Shown here: in pieces, positions 2,115-30,862 of the stretch
Layout of the letters: every line of letters begins with the position of its first letter
Position numbering within the stretch: the first letter of the stretch is position 1
Virus record (IMG/VR): IMGVR_UViG_3300025018_000077
Coordinates: 1-34,811 of that record
From: a virus
Taxonomy: Duplodnaviria > Caudoviricetes
DNA length: 34,811 bases
Strand: one strand, 5' to 3'
Made by a program: the position numbers and the translations under genes
The notes under the pieces: model-generated
Told to the model about the DNA's origin: nothing
The model's database searches: none
The model's input: the letters and a program-made list of their open reading frames with translations, nothing else

Positions 2115-3128
2115 TTATTTACAAGGTTCATGTAAAGTTCTGTTTGGAAATGCGGACAATAAACTATTTACAGAGTTAAAAGATTTTAAATATTTTGTTG
2201 ATAAATCTTTCCAAGCTAAGTCAGTATCGCAATAATAATATTTTGCAGAGTAATAACTAGAAGTATAGTAGATATTACCAGTGATAATGCTTTCTGTTTT
2301 TTGTTCAGTTTGAACATCAGGAACTTTATTTTCTGTAATTGTATTTACTTTTTCTGTCGTTGTAACATCTGGAGCAGGCTCATCATTGCAAGTATCTTTA
2401 TTCCAAAGACCTAAATTGTTTTCTCTTGCATATTTTTCTGATGATTTGAAATCGGATTGATATTTATAGGGAAGATTATAGGTATATTCATGAGCATATC
2501 CATTTTGGATCATGTATCTATTATAGAAAGTATTATCTTGCAAAAAAACATAAGCCAACAAACGATTATATTTGTCACGTTCACCTTGAGAAGAATCTGT
2601 TTCAATTCTCACTGATTTATTTAGTAGTAATTGAGTAGCTTTGTTTGAGGCTTCAATACCAAAACATTGAACGGGTTTTCTAGGGTCTTTCGTTTCTGGA
2701 GTATCTATACCAATAAGACGTAATCGTTCAACTTTACCATTATAATCTATATCAATAGTATCTCCATCAACGACTTTGACCACCTTAAAATATTGATAAT
2801 TTTCTGACTGTTCTGGCTTTGGTACTTCTAAAGTTTCACTTTGTTTTTGTTCTATTATTGGCTTATTACTTTCAATATCCAAAATTATTGTTTCAGTTGT
2901 ACTCACTATATTTAAAGTAGAAGTATTTGATAATTCATTTATTATTTCATTTTCTGTATTGTCGATATTTTCTTCTTGTACTTGAGTATTTTCTGCTATT
3001 GTTTCACTTTGTTTCAGACTTTCATTTTCAGGTGTTGAGGGAAGAAAAGACACAAAGATAACAAAACCAAAAAACCAGACAAAAACTTTACCTAACTTTG
3101 TAGAATAAATCTTTTTAAATAAATTCAT
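2115..3128 (-). CDS. Membrane-anchored thermonuclease (SNase family), accessory moron
   Basis: VVDGDTI, RLIGIDTPET, RDKYNRLLAYV and GLW motifs; N-terminal hydrophobic helix and acidic linker. Confidence 0.93.
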   Translation of the reverse strand: MNLFKKIYSTKLGKVFVWFFGFVIFVSFLPSTPENESLKQSETIAENTQVQEENIDNTENEIINELSNTSTLNIVSTTETIILDIESNKPIIEQKQSETLEVPKPEQSENYQYFKVVKVVDGDTIDIDYNGKVERLRLIGIDTPETKDPRKPVQCFGIEASNKATQLLLNKSVRIETDSSQGERDKYNRLLAYVFLQDNTFYNRYMIQNGYAHEYTYNLPYKYQSDFKSSEKYARENNLGLWNKDTCNDEPAPDVTTTEKVNTITENKVPDVQTEQKTESIITGNIYYTSSYYSAKYYYCDTDLAWKDLSTKYLKSFNSVNSLLSAFPNRTLHEPCK

Positions 3129-3490: not shown

Positions 3491-3702
3491 AGCATAGCTG
3501 GATACTTTATTTCGCTGGCAAAAACGTTGAGATGACTGACGACATGATAGTTGCTACAATTTGTCGGGAATTCAAATGGACTTATCAAGAGTTTATGGAG
3601 TCACCAGCTGTTTTTATAGACAATGTAATGATAATGATGAGAGCGGAAGCTAAACAAGAGAGAATAAGAGAAAGAATGTCCAAGATGAACTCAAAAAATT
3701 AG
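3469..3702 (+). CDS. Tail assembly chaperone -1 frameshift extension (G-T)
   Basis: The -1 frame is open 3433-3702 (...SEIEHSWILYFAGKNVEMTDDMIVATICREFKWTYQEFMESPAVFIDNV...), with an XXXYYYZ heptamer in the correct phase. Confidence 0.75.
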   Translation, partial: KFNESEIEHSWILYFAGKNVEMTDDMIVATICREFKWTYQEFMESPAVFIDNVMIMMRAEAKQERIRERMSKMNSKN

Positions 3703-3947
3703 CGTTGAGACATTATCAAATCGTAGAGTTTTCTTTTGAGTGATAATCTAATTATAATATCATATTTTTTTCCAGAAGTTGTCCTTATTCTCAATTTTTG
3801 GGTAAGAGGGTTAAACAATTCTATAGAAGAAACTTCCGATAGTGGAATTGAAAATTCTTTGTTCATAAAACCTTTTTTGTAAAAAAGATGATCAGAATAT
3901 AAAATAACCTTAAAACCCAAAAGTGAAGACTCAAATATTTTTTCCAT
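3699..3947 (-). CDS. Small bacterial PH-domain-like protein (moron)
   Basis: Pattern ILY.D.L.YKKG...E.SIPLSEVSSIE...LRIRTTSG; has its own - strand promoter. Confidence 0.6.
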   Translation of the reverse strand: MEKIFESSLLGFKVILYSDHLFYKKGFMNKEFSIPLSEVSSIELFNPLTQKLRIRTTSGKKYDIIIRLSLKRKLYDLIMSQR

Positions 3948-8207: not shown

Positions 8208-8228
8208 TTCGCACAAAAAAATAAAACG

Positions 8229-8320
8229 TGTTATAATAAATACAAATTTAATTTGCTCGAATAGAGAACTATAGAGCCGAAAAACAAACCATACTATGGG
8301 GCGTTTTCGGCTCTTTTTTT
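8229..8320 (+). promoter_or_regulatory. Structural-operon leader A: extended -10 promoter, antiterminator hairpin and intrinsic terminator
   Basis: TGtTATAAT 8229-8237; GCTC-GA-ATAG-AGAA-CTAT-A-GAGC 8255-8277; AGAGCCGAAAA 8273-8283 pairs with TTTTCGGCTCT 8304-8314, followed by a T-run. Confidence 0.8.
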
Positions 8321-8332
8321 ATTTTAAAAAAT

Positions 8333-8887
8333 ATGCTCAAACAAAAAACAAAAGGCAAAGTAGCCATACAAGAGAACATCCAACAATTCAAAATTTTAGG
8401 AAAACCGACAGCAGAACAACTCGCAAGATTGCGTGATTTTGTACGTGGAAAAATTGGCTTTCACGCTGTCAAAAGTTTTGTCACTGCTTATGAAAGCAAA
8501 TCTAATTTGACAACTCTAGTAGGTAGGGAAGTTCTAACAAGACGTCTTGTCGGTAATACAGTATACAGTGGCGAGATCACACACGGAGCAGTCGGCGACG
8601 GTACACCAGATACAAACGAAAACAGGACATCTCTAGTCAATGAAGTATTCCGCGTTATACCAGCTTCACACGTTTATGAAAACAATGTCGCTTATATAGA
8701 TTTTGTTTTCGCGGCCGACGACGTAGACGGAACTTTTACCGAATTCGCAAACTTTATTGACGGCGAAAATTGGAACGCTGGTGCTGGTGCAGACACAGGC
8801 CGAATGTTCAGTCTTATTGCCACAGGTGGCTGGGCAAAATCCAACGTAGAAAGTTTGTTTGTTTCTTGTAAATACACTTTAGTTTAA
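8333..8887 (+). CDS. Tail/baseplate-associated structural protein
   Basis: NLTT.VGR, ITHGAVGDG, LVNEVFR pattern resembles tail-fibre/collar N-terminal domains. Confidence 0.55.
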   Translation: MLKQKTKGKVAIQENIQQFKILGKPTAEQLARLRDFVRGKIGFHAVKSFVTAYESKSNLTTLVGREVLTRRLVGNTVYSGEITHGAVGDGTPDTNENRTSLVNEVFRVIPASHVYENNVAYIDFVFAADDVDGTFTEFANFIDGENWNAGAGADTGRMFSLIATGGWAKSNVESLFVSCKYTLV

Positions 8888-16287: not shown

Positions 16288-16330
16288 GTTTATCCACACC
16301 CAAAAAATACAAAAATTTGATATAATAAAA

Positions 16331-16392
16331 TTGCTCTACTAAACACAGAGCAAAATTCCACTGAGTTGCCCCTCCTTCTCAGTGGTTTTTTT
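16331..16392 (+). ncRNA. Candidate ~60-nt sRNA with two hairpins and an anti-SD loop
   Basis: TGaTATAAT at 16318-16326; TTGCTCT/AGAGCAA stem; CCACTGAG-TTGCCCCTCCTT-CTCAGTGG followed by T7. Confidence 0.65.
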
Positions 16393-16435
16393 ATTGACAA
16401 GTGATTGACAAGTGATTGTATAGTGTTATTGACAA
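16393..16435. repeat. 11-bp tandem repeats (ATTGACAAGTG x2, ATTGTATAGTG, then ATTGACAA)
   Basis: Read directly from the sequence, upstream of the recombinase gene. Confidence 0.8.
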
Positions 16436-17599: not shown

Positions 17600-17791
17600 A
17601 TGAAAACAGAAAATAAAAAAACTATAGGAAAACCTGTCAATCAAAAAAGGAGAGAAATAATTGTCAAACTTCGAGATGACGAAAATTTGAGTTTTGCCAA
17701 AATAGGGGAGGCCTTAGGAGTGTCAAAACAGTGTGTTTATACCACTTATGTGAGGGCAAAGAACGTCAAACAAATTATCCACAGCCTTTAG
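17600..17791 (+). CDS. Small HTH DNA-binding protein (Cro/Xis-like)
   Basis: LSFAKIGEALGVSKQCV helix-turn-helix. Confidence 0.85.
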   Translation: MKTENKKTIGKPVNQKRREIIVKLRDDENLSFAKIGEALGVSKQCVYTTYVRAKNVKQIIHSL

Positions 17792-20756: not shown

Positions 20757-21110
20757 ATGCAAGATATACAAGAAATTTTTACCAACGTGGAAGAAAAGAA
20801 AAAGGAGGTCAAGGAAATTAAGTCTAGTTTCAAAGAAGCTTTGGAAACTGTCCCAGAATATCAAGAGGTCCAAGAAAAAATAAAATCTCTATGTGAACAA
20901 AAAAAACGTATAGAATATACAATCAAAGAACAATTTTCAAAAGAAATTGAAAAAATAGAAGATCTAAAAATTGACATAGAGTCAGACATGGAAATGTTAT
21001 CAGATATTGCATTGGCAAAAATGGCTAAAGGGGAAAACTTGGAAGTATTCGATAAATACATGAACGAATACGAACCATTGTTCAAAGTAAATTTTAAAAA
21101 AATAACATAA
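20757..21110 (+). CDS. Conserved coiled-coil hypothetical protein, resembling a family I recall from CPR bacterial genomes
   Basis: MQDIQEIF...LKIDIESDMEMLSDIAL..M.KGE..EV.D.Y.NEYEP.F.V.FKK; recognition from memory, not searched. Confidence 0.6.
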   Translation: MQDIQEIFTNVEEKKKEVKEIKSSFKEALETVPEYQEVQEKIKSLCEQKKRIEYTIKEQFSKEIEKIEDLKIDIESDMEMLSDIALAKMAKGENLEVFDKYMNEYEPLFKVNFKKIT

Positions 21111-24486: not shown

Positions 24487-24535
24487 CTATTATAGAAGAA
24501 ACAAAAAACATTTTTTATTAATAATAATTTTGAAT

Positions 24536-25129
24536 ATGAATATAGAAAAACTTGTAAAAATAGTAGCCTCAAGAGCAAAAAATTTTGAGGAATTACAAAA
24601 AAGTGGTGAAAACTGGTTGAAAATGTTTTTAGAGAATGGTTGGATAAAAAAAGGGTATAGAATTTTAGACTATGGTGCGGGGTTGGGTCGTATTAGTATT
24701 CCATTTAGTAAAATTGCCGATGTGACCGCTGTTGACGGAAACAAAGAAATGGTTAAATTTTTGAAAAGCAAAAAAATAAAAGCGTCATGTTTAAGTAATC
24801 TTGATGATTTAAATTTTAATAAAAAATTTGATTTTATTATTTCAATTTATGTTTTGCAACATATTCACTTTCCAAACGCACAAAAATTAGTCACTAAAAT
24901 GGCAGAATTAACAGACACTTTATATTTTACATATCCTATAGAAGAAGACGGTTGTCCAGATAGTTATATTAACTATAAACAATCTTATGAAGTACCAGTT
25001 GAAGATAGTTCAGATGTTAGCAGAAAAATGAAACTTGAAGAATTACCTATTTTATTTGAACATAGTGATTTTGATCCAAATACTATAAAAAGATTATTTA
25101 GTAATTTGTTTGTAATAAAAAAAATATGA
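24536..25129 (+). CDS. Class I SAM-dependent methyltransferase
   Basis: ILDYGAGLGR, AVD and FDFIISIYVLQHI motifs. Confidence 0.88.
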   Translation: MNIEKLVKIVASRAKNFEELQKSGENWLKMFLENGWIKKGYRILDYGAGLGRISIPFSKIADVTAVDGNKEMVKFLKSKKIKASCLSNLDDLNFNKKFDFIISIYVLQHIHFPNAQKLVTKMAELTDTLYFTYPIEEDGCPDSYINYKQSYEVPVEDSSDVSRKMKLEELPILFEHSDFDPNTIKRLFSNLFVIKKI

Positions 25130-25647
25130 AAAAAGAAATAGCGCTAGAAAATCTTAAACTACTCACAAAAATACTAGGTAGAAAATTCTGGCTAGATTGT
25201 GGAACATTGCTCGGGGCAGTCAGAGAAAAGGACTTCATCGAACACGATACAGACATCGATGTCGGAATGTTGGAGGAAGAATGGGAAGATAAATATTTGG
25301 CATTATTTGAAAATGAGGGTTTCAAAATAAAAGTGTTGGGTCCAAGAAACTATGGAATGCAAATATCAATGAAAAGGAAAGATGTCAAAACTGATATTTT
25401 CCTTTATTTCAAGGAGGGAGGTGAAAGGTTTTTTGCATGTTGGTTGAATAAAGGGCAATTTTTGGAAGACATAATCAAGATGTCATATCCGGCATATCAT
25501 GTAGAACAATTGGAGATTCTAAAATTCAAAGGGGAAATCTACAACGTGCCGTCTGATTATCAAAAATTTTTAACTCAACGCTATGGTGACTGGTCAAAAG
25601 TGGATAAACAATTTCGCTGGGATACTTCACCAAAAAATATAAAGTAA
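25126..25647 (+). CDS. LicD/fukutin-family phosphotransferase
   Basis: FWLDCGTLLGAVRE.DFIEHDTDIDVG, DIF and L..RYGDW motifs. Confidence 0.92.
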   Translation: MKKEIALENLKLLTKILGRKFWLDCGTLLGAVREKDFIEHDTDIDVGMLEEEWEDKYLALFENEGFKIKVLGPRNYGMQISMKRKDVKTDIFLYFKEGGERFFACWLNKGQFLEDIIKMSYPAYHVEQLEILKFKGEIYNVPSDYQKFLTQRYGDWSKVDKQFRWDTSPKNIK

Positions 25648-25649
25648 TT

Positions 25650-26171
25650 ATGAACAAAGAATACTGGGATAAATACTATAAAGAAAAACATACAGATATT
25701 TTGAAGCCGTCACCATTTGCCGTATTTTGTAAGAGTTGGCTGGCAGATAATCCAATAGAAGACGCTTTTATTGTAGATATTGGGTGCGGTAATGGCCGTG
25801 ATATGTATTACTTGGGTGCTATTGGATATGATCAATCGTCATCAGCCGGTAATTATAAAAAAATCAGTGATGTAAATTTGGAACACTTCGATGTCGTCTA
25901 TGCAAGATTTGTAATCCACGCTTTGACAGAGGAAGAAGAAAAACAAATCTATGATCAATCAAGTGGCTATTTGATGATTGAGACTAGAAGCGACAAGGGA
26001 GTTAGACCAGACGAAACACACGAAAGACGACTTACTAATTCAGATGAACTTATCAAAAAACTAGAAGACAATAATTTCAAAATAATTTATTTCGTCGAGG
26101 GTTGGGGATTGGCTCCACACAAAGACGAAGACCCTGTTTGTGTAAGGGTAATAGCCAAAAAACAACTATGA
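25650..26171 (+). CDS. Class I SAM-dependent methyltransferase
   Basis: YWDKYY, PSPFA, VDIGCGNGRD and VYARFVIHA motifs. Confidence 0.88.
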   Translation: MNKEYWDKYYKEKHTDILKPSPFAVFCKSWLADNPIEDAFIVDIGCGNGRDMYYLGAIGYDQSSSAGNYKKISDVNLEHFDVVYARFVIHALTEEEEKQIYDQSSGYLMIETRSDKGVRPDETHERRLTNSDELIKKLEDNNFKIIYFVEGWGLAPHKDEDPVCVRVIAKKQL

Positions 26172-26962
26172 TGGACATAGAATTTCTAATAAAAACCTTT
26201 GAAAGAAAGGATTGTCTAGAGAGATTATTGCTAAGTTTAGAAAAATTTTATCCAAAGTATCCAATAATTATAGTAGACGATAGTGAGGAATTTGACAAAA
26301 AGTTTTATAAACAATTCAATCTCAATATAAGAATTTTGCACGTGGGGTATGATGTCGGACTATCCTATGGTCGAAATGTTGGCTGGCAACAAAGTGACAA
26401 AAAGTATATTTGTTTGCTGGACGACGACTTCGTCTTCACTGAAAAAACAGATATTGAAAAATTGTATAAAATAGCAGAAAGCACTGGGGCTGGAGTAGTA
26501 GCTGGAAGTTTGCAGAACGTGAGAAAGGTGGACGGCTATGACTACAATTTAGTGATTAGAGACAATACCTTATTTTACGAAAAAGGAAAAGAAAACTGGG
26601 AAAAATACAAAGGCATCGAATATAGGCAAAGTGAAATAGTATACAACTTTGGACTATTCAGAGTAGAGATGTTGAAAGAACATAGCTGGGATAATTTCAT
26701 TAAGATAAAAGGCGAGCACTCAGATTTTTTCCTAAGATTGAAAGAGACGGAATGGCAAGCCTTGTATGTGCCGGAAGTAGTTGTCAAGCATATACCAGTA
26801 AGAGATAGACACTACAACGAAAAACGAAGTAGAAATCAGTATCTAGCCTACATGATGAAAAAACATAATATCAAAACCATAGTCTCGCCATCGGGTACTA
26901 TGACAGAATTAATTAATAACAAAATTATAACTGGGAAAAAATATGAAAGCGACAATAATTAA
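26168..26962 (+). CDS. GT2-family glycosyltransferase
   Basis: IKTFER..CL.RLL.S, IVDDS, GLSYGRN, LLDDDF and EHSDFF motifs. Confidence 0.92.
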   Translation: MMDIEFLIKTFERKDCLERLLLSLEKFYPKYPIIIVDDSEEFDKKFYKQFNLNIRILHVGYDVGLSYGRNVGWQQSDKKYICLLDDDFVFTEKTDIEKLYKIAESTGAGVVAGSLQNVRKVDGYDYNLVIRDNTLFYEKGKENWEKYKGIEYRQSEIVYNFGLFRVEMLKEHSWDNFIKIKGEHSDFFLRLKETEWQALYVPEVVVKHIPVRDRHYNEKRSRNQYLAYMMKKHNIKTIVSPSGTMTELINNKIITGKKYESDNN

Positions 26963-27520: not shown

Positions 27521-28006
27521 ATGTCTAAAAAAAAGAAGAAACCGGACAAACCAAAAAAAAAGAAAGTCACTAAAAGCAAAAAGGGGATTAATCCTAAACA
27601 AGAAGAGTTTTGTCAATTATTTGCTAGTGATAAAGAATTTTTTGGAAATGGTACCTTAGCATATATTGAAGCTTACAATATCGATTTAACCCAAAAAGGC
27701 GCTTATGATGGTGCAAAAGCTAATGCTTATAAGTTGCTTACAAAGACTTACATTTTGGAACGTATCAACAAAATTTTTGAAACTCGTGGATTGAATGACA
27801 CTTTTGTAGATAAACAACTAGAAAAATTGATTACACAGGACGCAGATTTCAAATCTAAAATAAATGCAATACGTGAATATAATGCTCTTAAAGGCAGAAT
27901 TCTTAAAAAAGTAGATCTTACATCAAAAGGCAAAAAAATCAAAAACGCACCAATAACAAATCAAATCACTCTCACTAATTTCAAAGATGAACCAGATAGT
28001 CAATGA
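27521..28006 (+). CDS. terS: Terminase small subunit
   Basis: NPKQEEFC...GNGTLAYIEAY...AYKLL...VDLTSKG; directly upstream of terL. Confidence 0.85.
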   Translation: MSKKKKKPDKPKKKKVTKSKKGINPKQEEFCQLFASDKEFFGNGTLAYIEAYNIDLTQKGAYDGAKANAYKLLTKTYILERINKIFETRGLNDTFVDKQLEKLITQDADFKSKINAIREYNALKGRILKKVDLTSKGKKIKNAPITNQITLTNFKDEPDSQ

Positions 28007-29261
28007 TAAATACACCCCTGTATTTACCAATACACAAGCCAGATATTTTATACTCATGGGGGGTCGTTCTGCTGGTCGTTCGACTGTTGCCAGTCAATAT
28101 GCACTAGCTAAATTAGTGGCCCCTGATTATTTTCGTTGTGCAATAATGCGTTTGGTGCTTGGTGATATTCGCAATAGTATCTATCAAGATATTGCCGATA
28201 GAATAGAAGAGCAAGAACTAGAAGAACAAATCAAAACAACAGAAAACCCACTGTCCATAGAATATGGCCAAAACAAAATCAATGGTATAGGTTTTCGCAA
28301 ATCTAGTGGAGATCAAAAATCAAAGCTCAAATCTTTGGCAAATTACAACTGCGTGATTATTGAGGAAGCTGATGAAGTATCAGAAGAGGACTTCATGCAA
28401 TTAGATGATAGTTTACGTACCTTAAAATCCGACATCAAGATTATTTTATTACTCAATCCACCACAAAAAAATCACTGGATAATAAAGCGTTGGTTTAATT
28501 TGGAAGACTCTGGTATTAAGGGTTTTTATATCCCAAAACTCAAATCAAACATAGATGATACGGTGTTTATACATTCCACGTTTAGGGATAATATCAAAAA
28601 TATTAGTCCATCGACTATAAGAAATTTTGAAAACTACAAAGAGATAAAGCCTGATCATTATTACAACATGATAGAGGGTCTAGTCAGCGAGGGTGCGAGA
28701 GGTAGAATATTTAAAAATTGGAAAGTTATCAGTGACGAAGCCTATGAGGCTATGCCATACAGTCCATACAATGGCCTTGACTTCGGCTTTACCAACGACC
28801 CGACTGCTTTGATTGAAATCAAAGAACATAACAACAAAATATTTTTGAAAGAATTGATATACGAAACGGGCTTAGTAAACAGAGACCCAGAAAACAAAGT
28901 TCCTAGTATTTCTCAAAAAATGAAAGAAAAAGGCGTAAAAAAAGAGACACCTACATACGCAGACAGTGCCGAGCCCAAATCTATTGCAGAATTGAAACTA
29001 GATGGCTGGAATATCAAGCCTGCAGAAAAGGGACCAGACAGCGTACGAGCCAGACTAGACTATCTATTGGGCAAAGAGGTCTATTATACCGAGTCTAGCA
29101 TTAACATCGCCCTAGAAGTCCAAGAATACCGCTGGGCGCTTGATAGAAATAAGGAACCTACAAATCAACCAGTTGATGAATTTAATCACGCAATGGACGG
29201 CACCGGCTACGGCGTATTTACTCACAACAAAAAAGGAAATATCAATATTGGTATTCTATGA
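27987..29261 (+). CDS. terL: Terminase large subunit (PBSX-like)
   Basis: GGRSAGRS Walker A variant, IIEEADE Walker B, LNPP, GLDFGFTNDPTA, ADSAEP and NHAMD motifs. Confidence 0.95.
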   Translation: MNQIVNDKYTPVFTNTQARYFILMGGRSAGRSTVASQYALAKLVAPDYFRCAIMRLVLGDIRNSIYQDIADRIEEQELEEQIKTTENPLSIEYGQNKINGIGFRKSSGDQKSKLKSLANYNCVIIEEADEVSEEDFMQLDDSLRTLKSDIKIILLLNPPQKNHWIIKRWFNLEDSGIKGFYIPKLKSNIDDTVFIHSTFRDNIKNISPSTIRNFENYKEIKPDHYYNMIEGLVSEGARGRIFKNWKVISDEAYEAMPYSPYNGLDFGFTNDPTALIEIKEHNNKIFLKELIYETGLVNRDPENKVPSISQKMKEKGVKKETPTYADSAEPKSIAELKLDGWNIKPAEKGPDSVRARLDYLLGKEVYYTESSINIALEVQEYRWALDRNKEPTNQPVDEFNHAMDGTGYGVFTHNKKGNINIGIL

Positions 29262-29470
29262 GTTACAAACAAAATGAATTTAAAAAACAGGTTATGCTTA
29301 GTCCCGAATGGGAGAGGCTGATCAAGGTAGCTCAAAGAATGCAATTCGGCGAAGCTACAATCACGTTCAAGCATGGCAAACCAATTATGATGAGTAATTT
29401 AATTCAACGCGTGAAGTTGGATGAAGACAGTGTTTTTCGAGATGGACTAAATGAAATACCAATAATTTGA
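29258..29470 (+). CDS. DUF2292/YezD-like small protein, candidate RNA-binding antiterminator
   Basis: ERLI....RMQFGEATITFKHGKPI......RVKL matches the I...L..L.FGSV.I.VHDG.V.QI....K.RL pattern; lies just upstream of leader B. Confidence 0.55.
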   Translation: MSYKQNEFKKQVMLSPEWERLIKVAQRMQFGEATITFKHGKPIMMSNLIQRVKLDEDSVFRDGLNEIPII

Positions 29471-29471
29471 T

Positions 29472-29617
29472 TTATCCACAGACAAAAAATAGAAAGTGTG
29501 TTATAATAAATACATGAAAATTTAATTTCTACTTTTGTAGATAGCTTCAATCGAGAACGATAGAGCCAAAGATGATGTCTTTTTTTATAAGAGCCAATAT
29601 CTTTGGCTCTTTTTTTT
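29472..29617 (+). promoter_or_regulatory. Structural-operon leader B: DnaA box, extended -10 promoter, Cas12a handle, antiterminator hairpin and terminator
   Basis: TTATCCACA 29472-29480; TGtTATAAT 29499-29507; GCTT-CA-ATCG-AGAA-CGAT-A-GAGC 29544-29566; AGAGCCAAAGAT/ATCTTTGGCTCT followed by a T-run. Confidence 0.8.
29524..29542 (+). CRISPR. Solitary type V-A (Cas12a) repeat handle; not an array
   Basis: AATTTCTACTTTTGTAGAT matches the conserved mature Cas12a direct repeat AATTTCTACTnnTGTAGAT. Confidence 0.8.
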
Positions 29618-29623
29618 GTTTAT

Positions 29624-30862
29624 ATGAATTTTTTTAAAAAAATTAAAAATCTAGTATCAGTCAAAAAGTCCTACTATGGGGCTCAATTTACTACACTAGC
29701 AGAACACAAACTAGACTGGAATACTACCAACTATTTGAAAGCATACGAGACTAGTCCCTATGTTTTTGCTTGCGTAAAGAAAAGAAGTGAAAAAGTGGGA
29801 CAAATTCAATTTAAACTATTCAGAGGTGATAAAGAAGTAGTCAAAGATGACTTATTGAATTTATTGTATAAGCCAAACAAAAATCAAACAAAGAATGAAT
29901 TTTTTGAGACTTATCAGATGTATAAAGACCTTGCTGGCTCGACTTTTATTTATTTAATCCGAGAGGGAAAGAAAGTGACAGAAATGCACAATCTACGTCC
30001 TGATTTTGTAACTGTGGTGGTTAATAAAGATACCGGAACTGTAGACGGATATAAATATAAAGTCGCTGGTGGTGGTAAAGAGTTGGTATTTGAACCAGAA
30101 GAGGTAATAGCTTCTCATTATTGTAGTCCACTAGGGGCATACAAAGGCCAATCAATGCTAAAAGCTGCCGCTTTGACAGTCTATACCGAACAACAACTTA
30201 ATCAATATCATGCTAATGTTTTGAAAAATGGTGGAAAAGTAGAAGGACTTTTGACATACAAGGTAGAGAGTCTAACTGATGAGCAAATAAAAAGAATTAA
30301 AACAGAATTTAAAAAGAAATTTGCCGGAGCAAGTAAGTCCGGTGAACCAATGGTCCTCTATGGAGGATTGGAATACGAAAATTTGGGACTTACTCCAACA
30401 GAATTGTCATACATCGAAAGCAAAAAAATGACAGTGGATGATTTGCTTGTTGTTTTTGGTATTCCAAAGGCTTTATTTGCTTTAGACAGTGGCTCACTTG
30501 GTAGCAATGGATATGACGCAGCCAAAGCAATATTTTTGAGTGAAACAATCAAACCATTGCAAGATAACCTTGTAGAAAAACTAAATGAATTTTTAGTACC
30601 TGCCGAATTTGAACTAAAAAACGTTGACCCCTCCCCTGAAAATACAGAAATGAAATTGAAACAAGTTGAGAATGGTATTAAAAATTATTACATGACACCA
30701 AACGAAGCTAGAGAATTGATGGGAATGGAACGTATAGACGGAGCTGACCAATTACTCATACCTTTTGGACTTTTACCACAAGACACAACGAATGAAGAAG
30801 ACACAGCAAACAAGAAGCTGTCAAAAAAAAAACTTTGCACCCACTGCAAAATCCAAAAGTAA
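29624..30862 (+). CDS. Portal protein (HK97-like)
   Basis: VFACV, LLYKPN..QT, LRPDFV, LSYIESKK and MTPNEARE motifs; ATG at 29624 preferred. Confidence 0.93.
   Translation: MNFFKKIKNLVSVKKSYYGAQFTTLAEHKLDWNTTNYLKAYETSPYVFACVKKRSEKVGQIQFKLFRGDKEVVKDDLLNLLYKPNKNQTKNEFFETYQMYKDLAGSTFIYLIREGKKVTEMHNLRPDFVTVVVNKDTGTVDGYKYKVAGGGKELVFEPEEVIASHYCSPLGAYKGQSMLKAAALTVYTEQQLNQYHANVLKNGGKVEGLLTYKVESLTDEQIKRIKTEFKKKFAGASKSGEPMVLYGGLEYENLGLTPTELSYIESKKMTVDDLLVVFGIPKALFALDSGSLGSNGYDAAKAIFLSETIKPLQDNLVEKLNEFLVPAEFELKNVDPSPENTEMKLKQVENGIKNYYMTPNEARELMGMERIDGADQLLIPFGLLPQDTTNEEDTANKKLSKKKLCTHCKIQK

Follow-up and report, generated by a model that had tools for sequence, protein, structure and literature searches.

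The head-operon leader of this phage carries a complete Cas12a crRNA 5′ handle, and we interpret the leader as a probable type V-A RNA anti-CRISPR (Racr, a known class) in which a decoy rides on an attenuated late-operon transcript. Judging from sequence, we put the probability of this interpretation at roughly 55%. The window is the whole stretch of DNA analyzed, a complete virus record; it is 34,811 bases long, has a G+C content of 35%, and carries terminal repeats of 127 nt. The handle is an exact 19-mer with a UUUU loop of the CPR type on the plus strand; its positions, 29524–29542, and the preceding T are as described in the first-pass annotation. The genome holds one copy, and 0 of 100 shuffles contain any. 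Two further genome matches have 3 mismatches, and both lie within ORFs; a Pfam scan of the 52 ORFs found no cas domain, so that the earlier statement of no second repeat and no cas gene was confirmed. As in type V-A solitary repeat units, the handle is solitary, intergenic, and on an element without cas genes, and it lies behind a promoter, here identified by consensus match only. Rfam gave no match at gathering score.

All elements of the leader and its flanking genes are on the plus strand. Upstream lie the terminase large subunit gene (27987–29261; Pfam Terminase_3, E = 7e-32) and a 70-aa DUF2292/YezD-like ORF (29258–29470), whose match to Pfam DUF2292 (E = 0.011) falls under the cut-off and whose product is a candidate ligand of the leader hairpin. 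A sigma-70-type promoter with an extended −10 box, TG-TATAAT, follows at 29479–29507 (consensus match 10/12; −35 element CAGACA, 17-nt spacer), with the start predicted at ∼29514. On recomputing the spacing, the handle again begins 17 nt after the extended −10 box. The 23-nt guide-equivalent (29543–29565) overlaps a small antiterminator-like hairpin at 29544–29566 (4-bp lower stem, 2×1 loop, 4-bp apical stem, AGAA loop), in keeping with the earlier view that guide and hairpin coincide. The 3′ strand of this hairpin doubles as the 5′ arm of an intrinsic terminator (29562–29617) with a long stem (29562–29610), a U8 run ending at 29617, and a fold z of −5.0, which closes the ∼100-nt unit noted previously. 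A back-up terminator hairpin at 29589–29611, absent from the earlier account, arises from a second AGAGCCAA copy at 29590–29597 and is worth −12.2 kcal/mol alone. The terminator ends 6 nt before the ATG of the portal gene, the first gene of the head operon (29624–30862; Pfam Phage_portal, E = 8e-60), which MuF, protease, and capsid genes follow.

The paralogous leader reported in the first-pass annotation is present at 8228–8322 (plus strand), before a 184-aa ORF at 8333 in the tail region. The two leaders have in common the promoter core (repeated at 8228–8237), the small hairpin, whose fold recurs at 8255–8277 with one compensatory pair, and the terminator. The first 5 handle bases already occur in the paralogous leader, which is without the 15 nt completing the handle and without a 4-nt piece just past the start site. 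The idea that the handle is a 15-nt addition to a shared leader is thus correct as to the 15-nt difference, missed the 4-nt one, and assumed a direction of change that cannot be polarized. If the decoy interpretation is true, a 15-nt difference turns an attenuator by-product into a Cas12a decoy, which would show that such inhibitors arise cheaply. A third promoter-hairpin-terminator leader, without the shared motif, lies upstream of the integrase gene at 16318–16395.

Comparison of the 52 ORFs with Pfam identified tail tube, tape measure, integrase, terminase, portal, MuF, protease, and capsid products. Portal relatives with names belong to Paceibacterota and Collierbacteria and also to Omnitrophota and Fermentibacteria records. 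The ORF at 20757–21110 shows 66–68% identity to Candidatus Magasanikbacteria proteins, a hint as to the host; its best genome match has 58% identity, and we took the order of that genome as the likely host order. Distant portal relatives (25–29% identity) were found in 4 of 401 genomes of the phylum, none of the four with the handle, which is weak host evidence. Taken from these sequence similarities, the host of the phage is likely a member of the Patescibacteria. The runs containing the stretch are all 2017 aquifer or groundwater DNA, possibly from one campaign, and a contig of another run (X3) covers 29308–29650 with zero differences.

The handle matches the repeats of CRISPR arrays in CPR genomes. 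In the genome collection, the exact 19-mer occurs at 121 loci from 26 of the 64 collection parts, and 61 of these loci are arrays with repeats ending in the 19-mer (39 from CPR lineages, 7 unlabelled, and 15 from other phyla, hand-counted by title). The remaining loci are array ends, solitary copies, and chance matches. The handle thus agrees with the V-A repeats at 19 of 19 nt in 61 arrays, and the match extends over 29520–29542, or 23 nt, in two; T precedes the 19-mer in just 11 of the 61. Of 240 genomes in the likely host order, 9 have a handle and 7 of these have arrays with the exact 19-mer, all with the UUUU loop. This comparison with Patescibacteria Cas12a arrays bears out the CPR type of the handle. 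A Cas12a family search scored above cut-off in 33 of 50 genomes picked from the 121 loci, mostly CPR, and in 3 of 100 genomes, which are incomplete, of the likely host family. None of two sets of spacers (1071 and 156) matched the phage better than shuffles did. The best single match, an L228 spacer to L188 (2 mismatches, TTTA PAM), was rejected because each control set also gave one 2-mismatch match.

Two side observations came from the same material. In L556, L562, and L571, from genomes reached via the handle scan, CreR-like solitary handles are close to cas12a. At L718:4427–4445 (G043:C7), on a host chromosome, a solitary handle lies 6 nt past the stop of a gene, presumably one for a ribosomal-protein-S21-like product, and is followed by a hairpin and a terminator; Cas12a was not found in the incomplete genome G043. 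This locus was rejected as a second case of a handle with an attenuator, as the hairpin-like sequence proved to be coding sequence of the S21-like gene.

Solitary handles recur in other phages. In the viral collection, the exact 19-mer was found at 19 loci (15 without ORF overlap, 3 with marginal overlap, and 1 inside a long gene), and a reversed-control 19-mer at 3 loci, all overlapped by ORFs. The generic handle occurs in an estimated ∼680 stretches compared with 91 for the reversed control. Removing duplicates from 120 and 90 parsed loci left 98 distinct handles and 62 distinct controls; 68 of the 98 are intergenic as opposed to 9 of the 62, and a terminator lies downstream of 31 as opposed to 1. 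Promoter, intergenic position, and terminator come together in 7 of 98 handles and 0 of 62 controls. Given this enrichment over the reversed control, solitary V-A handles are a real class in phages, and a chance origin of the present one is very unlikely.

The strongest alternative is that the handle is a neutral relic or a chance product, a captured repeat fragment or generic hairpin with no present function. The handle is certainly lineage-specific. A portal alignment recovered 159 loci of relatives, where a single-protein portal search of viral contigs had given none; they total 1.35 Mb without the window's own record, many are redundant, and their portal identity reaches ∼54% at most. Of these loci, 0 carry the exact handle and 2 have a one-mismatch copy that lies outside the leader. 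This answers in the negative the question, raised by the first reading of the sequence, of whether related phages have it. The lack of the handle in every relative, and of any DUF2292-like ORF close to the solitary handles elsewhere (183 loci; 60 loci), leaves selection on this copy without comparative support. The five bases that pre-exist in the paralogous leader and the chance occurrence of the 19-mer within genes (a conserved Bacillus gene and L328 are examples) also fit a relic or an accident. However, the match is perfect, takes in the loop of host type, and continues to 23 nt, the control yielded 3 exact matches in the whole viral collection, and its 62 distinct loci include none with the joint layout found in 7 handles. 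We therefore consider this alternative unlikely.

The decoy interpretation builds on elements that are directly established, namely the sequence, its solitary state, its identity with CPR array repeats, its absence from relatives, and the clade-wide switch described below. A CPR-type handle would sit atop an older switch of hairpin and terminator. Being of host type, the promoter would be active as soon as the DNA enters and also in the lysogen, while head genes are off, so that stopped RNA would be an abundant by-product, and the back-up terminator would raise its share. This ∼100-nt stopped RNA would serve as a decoy crRNA, tying up host Cas12a with a guide that has no target in the sequences searched. 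From the processing site of Cas12a relative to its handle, the enzyme would cut ∼10 nt from the RNA 5′ end and remain bound. Such a cut would remove nothing coding, ∼60 nt from the portal start, and the cost to the phage would be small.

Predicted RNA folds are consistent with this mechanism. In the terminated RNA, the handle stem has a predicted probability of ∼0.99, and guide bases 1–6 are mostly unpaired (0.64–0.98 before processing, at least 0.9 after). Guide bases 2–5 form the 5′ side of the lower stem in the small hairpin, and in nascent RNAs that end at 29567–29605 they are paired, with predicted probabilities of 0.95–0.97 for the two outer pairs. Cas12a pre-orders the seed of its guide. 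With the handle folded and the seed mostly free in the terminated RNA but paired in the nascent RNA, the stopped RNA would be the loadable form. Of the earlier proposal of a crRNA mimic with a nontargeting guide, the handle type, unit layout, predicted fold, and a guide with no target found all stood, and decoy action is a candidate function suggested by them.

Published work bears on decoy action in both directions. Three V-A Racrs inhibited a Cas12a system (PMC10651486), and FnCas12a could turn a lone 3′ repeat and the sequence behind it into a functional crRNA (PMC6610086). Other results of the latter source speak against a decoy: in one FnCas12a test, plasmid clearance was unchanged on removal of the terminal repeat, and processing can be inhibited by an adjacent stable structure. 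In bioRxiv 2024.10.29.618823, derepression of cas12a by the host deprived a nontargeting CracrVA1 mutant of its anti-CRISPR activity, which counts against a pure decoy. Our own results also count against a decoy in that Cas12a is rare in the likely host group, no spacer links host and phage, the T before the handle is shared by a minority of the arrays, and the handles near cas12a in L556, L562, and L571 are CreR-like.

The switch beneath the handle was traced through the relatives. A small ORF related to 29258–29470 precedes the portal gene in 61 of 117 loci, own record included; Atlas neighbours of the 70-aa ORF carry DUF2292 at scores of 0.84–0.85, a lead only. A small purine-loop hairpin was found in 33 of 45 distinct leaders with the DUF2292-like ORF (own leader included) vs. 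2 of 26 without it, counts that omit three too-short leaders, come from lineages that are not independent, and compare with a shuffle background of 247/2250. Aligning 34 hairpins gave 71% paired cells compared with 57% in shuffles, where only the lower stem counts as evidence since the three apical pairs were the selection criterion. Among the 34 leaders, 22 fold as a terminator, and forcing the hairpin abolishes the terminator in 21 of them. The window leader shares the architecture of this clade switch, a small hairpin overlapping the terminator 5′ arm together with a small upstream ORF. The resemblance does not extend to the hairpin sequence: R1, a model of the relatives' hairpins built without the window copies, listed neither window hairpin at E ≤ 10. 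The relatives' hairpin has a 3-bp stem and a 5-nt purine-rich loop compared with a 4-nt loop in the window copies, which accounts for the failure of R1 to find them and makes the window hairpin an architectural analogue.

The layout resembles known antitermination systems. In the RAT antiterminators of BglG, SacY, and LicT and in lambda N-boxB, a small hairpin has a 3′ strand that serves as the terminator 5′ arm. The present leader is like these in its hairpin-terminator overlap, its purine-rich loop, and the small adjacent protein as candidate reader; it is unlike them in that the candidate reader is DUF2292-like and matched no solved fold. The AlphaFold model of the 70-aa protein is poor (pLDDT 57.6), and this low-confidence model gave no match among solved folds (best Z 3.0). 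The Pfam scan gave no match to a CAT-domain antiterminator, the mark of BglG/SacY RAT systems, and a literature search by title and abstract start found no published function for DUF2292. We infer that the DUF2292-like protein, and not Cas12a, likely controls read-through. Because the handle leader has a back-up terminator, pure strand competition is disfavored; portal expression past the terminator might instead depend on partial read-through or on the small protein acting on polymerase in an N-like manner.

Three side observations concern the relatives. Second hairpin copies lie ∼2.6 kb upstream of the portal gene at L157:266, L169:380, and L171:389, matches of R1 outside its training set. 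Eight leaders (L133, L134, L136, L150, L157, L169, L171, and L173) have the small hairpin and no terminator-like fold before the portal start, which suggests translational control in that branch. Other relatives without the small ORF look leaderless.

The first-pass annotation had also proposed a sensor, in which Cas12a on the nascent leader alters read-through into the portal and capsid genes. In its likeliest form, Cas12a would hold guide bases 1–6 single-stranded, block the small hairpin, and favor termination, delaying virion genes while Cas12a is free. The pairing of guide bases 2–5 in the nascent hairpin accords with such a sensor, as do phages L399, L423, and L662, in which 11–14 nt separate the handle from a following start codon and the guide is the ribosome site, so that binding must affect expression. 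However, the hairpin/terminator switch is present without the handle in all relatives examined and goes with the DUF2292-like protein. In the handle-bearing leader, moreover, both folds end in a terminator, which still formed with the small hairpin forced (−25.1 vs. −30.3 kcal/mol unforced), as in only 1 of the 22 relatives. Hairpin and terminator are mutually exclusive in the other 21 and in the 8228 leader, where forcing the hairpin cost the terminator (−14.5 vs. −24.3 kcal/mol). Forcing the guide unpaired left the final terminator fold unchanged, and since the back-up terminator persists with the hairpin forced, Cas12a on the guide would not obviously change the outcome. In these fold models, the back-up terminator favors more stopped RNA and weakens a simple sensor. 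The sensor claim is therefore unsupported, and we regard it as quite unlikely.

A third alternative assigns the guide a target. As in CracrVA1, whose layout of single repeat, spacer, and terminator is shared here, the guide would direct Cas12a to the promoter of the true host's cas12a gene and repress it; CreR-like units do occur in CPR cas12a loci. The longest PAM-proximal guide match reached 6 nt both in the phage and in 175 kb of CPR cas12a loci (shuffled guides typically give 6–8), and 7 nt in 150 kb of sequence belonging to the likely host order, compared with the at least 9 PAM-proximal matches of the published criterion for Cracr and CreR. No guide target with a PAM was found in the phage or the sampled CPR cas12a loci beyond the level of shuffles, consistent with the nontargeting guide proposed earlier. 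The guide is moreover the attenuator hairpin, which is also in the handle-less paralog, and we consider promoter repression very improbable. Least probable of all is a role unrelated to Cas12a, in which a phage repressor would bind the 5-bp inverted repeat as its DNA operator or the repeat would simply form a 5′ stabilizing hairpin: it lies at ∼+15 to +28 from the predicted start and a small HTH protein is encoded at 17600, but there is no second palindrome copy with comparable spacing, the sole other one-mismatch match is in a gene, and the asymmetric flanks are identical to the Cas12a handle.

The decoy interpretation is partly known in kind, since V-A Racrs and phage Cas12a RNAs made of a single repeat, spacer, and terminator are described in PMC10651486 and bioRxiv 2024.10.29.618823. 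Like the Racrs of the former, RacrVA1–3 included, the window unit is a single repeat-like unit, intergenic, behind a promoter, without cas genes, and with a repeat of the type found in arrays of the likely host order. Unlike them, it consists of a 19–23 nt handle only, lies in a head-operon leader rather than beside acr genes, and has a regulatory hairpin as its guide. It resembles CracrVA1 and CreR (bioRxiv 2024.10.29.618823 and bioRxiv 2023.03.03.530964) as a V-A repeat-spacer-terminator unit in a phage, and it differs in that no promoter target was found and the unit runs on into virion genes. According to the second preprint, about half of V-A loci have solitary repeats. In the extraneous crRNAs of Cas12a terminal repeats, as presented in PMC6610086, a lone handle plus arbitrary sequence is processed and loaded; those crRNAs are selected against in arrays, whereas the phage leader has its handle intact. 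The words capsid, structural, and leader are absent from the main text of PMC10651486, and the 19-mer was not found in the part of its supplementary text that was searched. No published Racr in a late-operon leader was found in a literature search that covered few subscription papers. The known RNA anti-CRISPRs are stand-alone small RNAs or lie beside acr genes. The decoy, if true, would be a candidate for counter-defense against Patescibacteria Cas12a systems.

Units of this kind may have gone uncatalogued. The SRUFinder search of PMC10651486 used a cut-off of 41.1 bits. In our own comparison a 20-nt match scores 40.1 bits; the 19–20 nt range spans 38–40 bits, the 19-nt value being calculated. 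Handle-only units of 19–20 nt thus fall below the published cut-off, and hundreds of phage cases may be uncatalogued in view of the ∼680 stretches. Among 34 loci scanned against PHROGs, 8 intergenic handles precede virion or packaging genes, in a biased sample that pools four scans and was drawn from 39 distinct intergenic handles with a sense ORF start within 260 nt. Three of these have a UUUU loop: L322:3035, where a major head protein is encoded by the gene after next; L326:6001, where a terminator and then protease-like and head genes follow; and L333:6001, before a tail gene. Others lie before a tail gene (L399:2001/L632), a neck gene (L360), a small terminase gene (L648:2501), and, 14 nt from its start, a major head gene (L662:2501). 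Handles ahead of virion genes in unrelated phages are a matter of recurrence and not enrichment. We hold as a doubtful extension that minimal Cas12a handles in late operons are a general phage strategy, baiting Cas12a while antiterminator or ribosome-site guides (L399, L423, and L662) make virion genes respond to free Cas12a; if this is true, the phages would have turned an effector of the host into an immune-sensing switch.

Further observations concern single loci and the rest of the genome. The late-operon handles of unrelated phages also include L423:2001, and in some of them an upstream stop codon gives the first handle bases and the guide comprises the ribosome site and start codon. At L325/L338:6001, a full 36-nt CPR-type repeat, solitary and with a leader-like flank, adjoins phage terminase genes. 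In the window, portal and MuF are separate genes whose overlapping frames part at a run of 10 A (30787–30862). Most relatives have a portal-MuF fusion of 630–700 aa, and several likewise end shortly past a lysine/A run. Because the 10-A run is identical in contigs of two runs (X1 and X2), a programmed −1 slip is likely. A gene cluster at 24530–26962 encodes a methyltransferase, a LicD-like protein, a second methyltransferase, and a glycosyltransferase, possibly with a role in surface or DNA modification. Minus-strand insertions in the tail operon encode a staphylococcal-nuclease-family protein with a hydrophobic N-terminus (2115–3128) and an 82-aa ORF (3699–3947).
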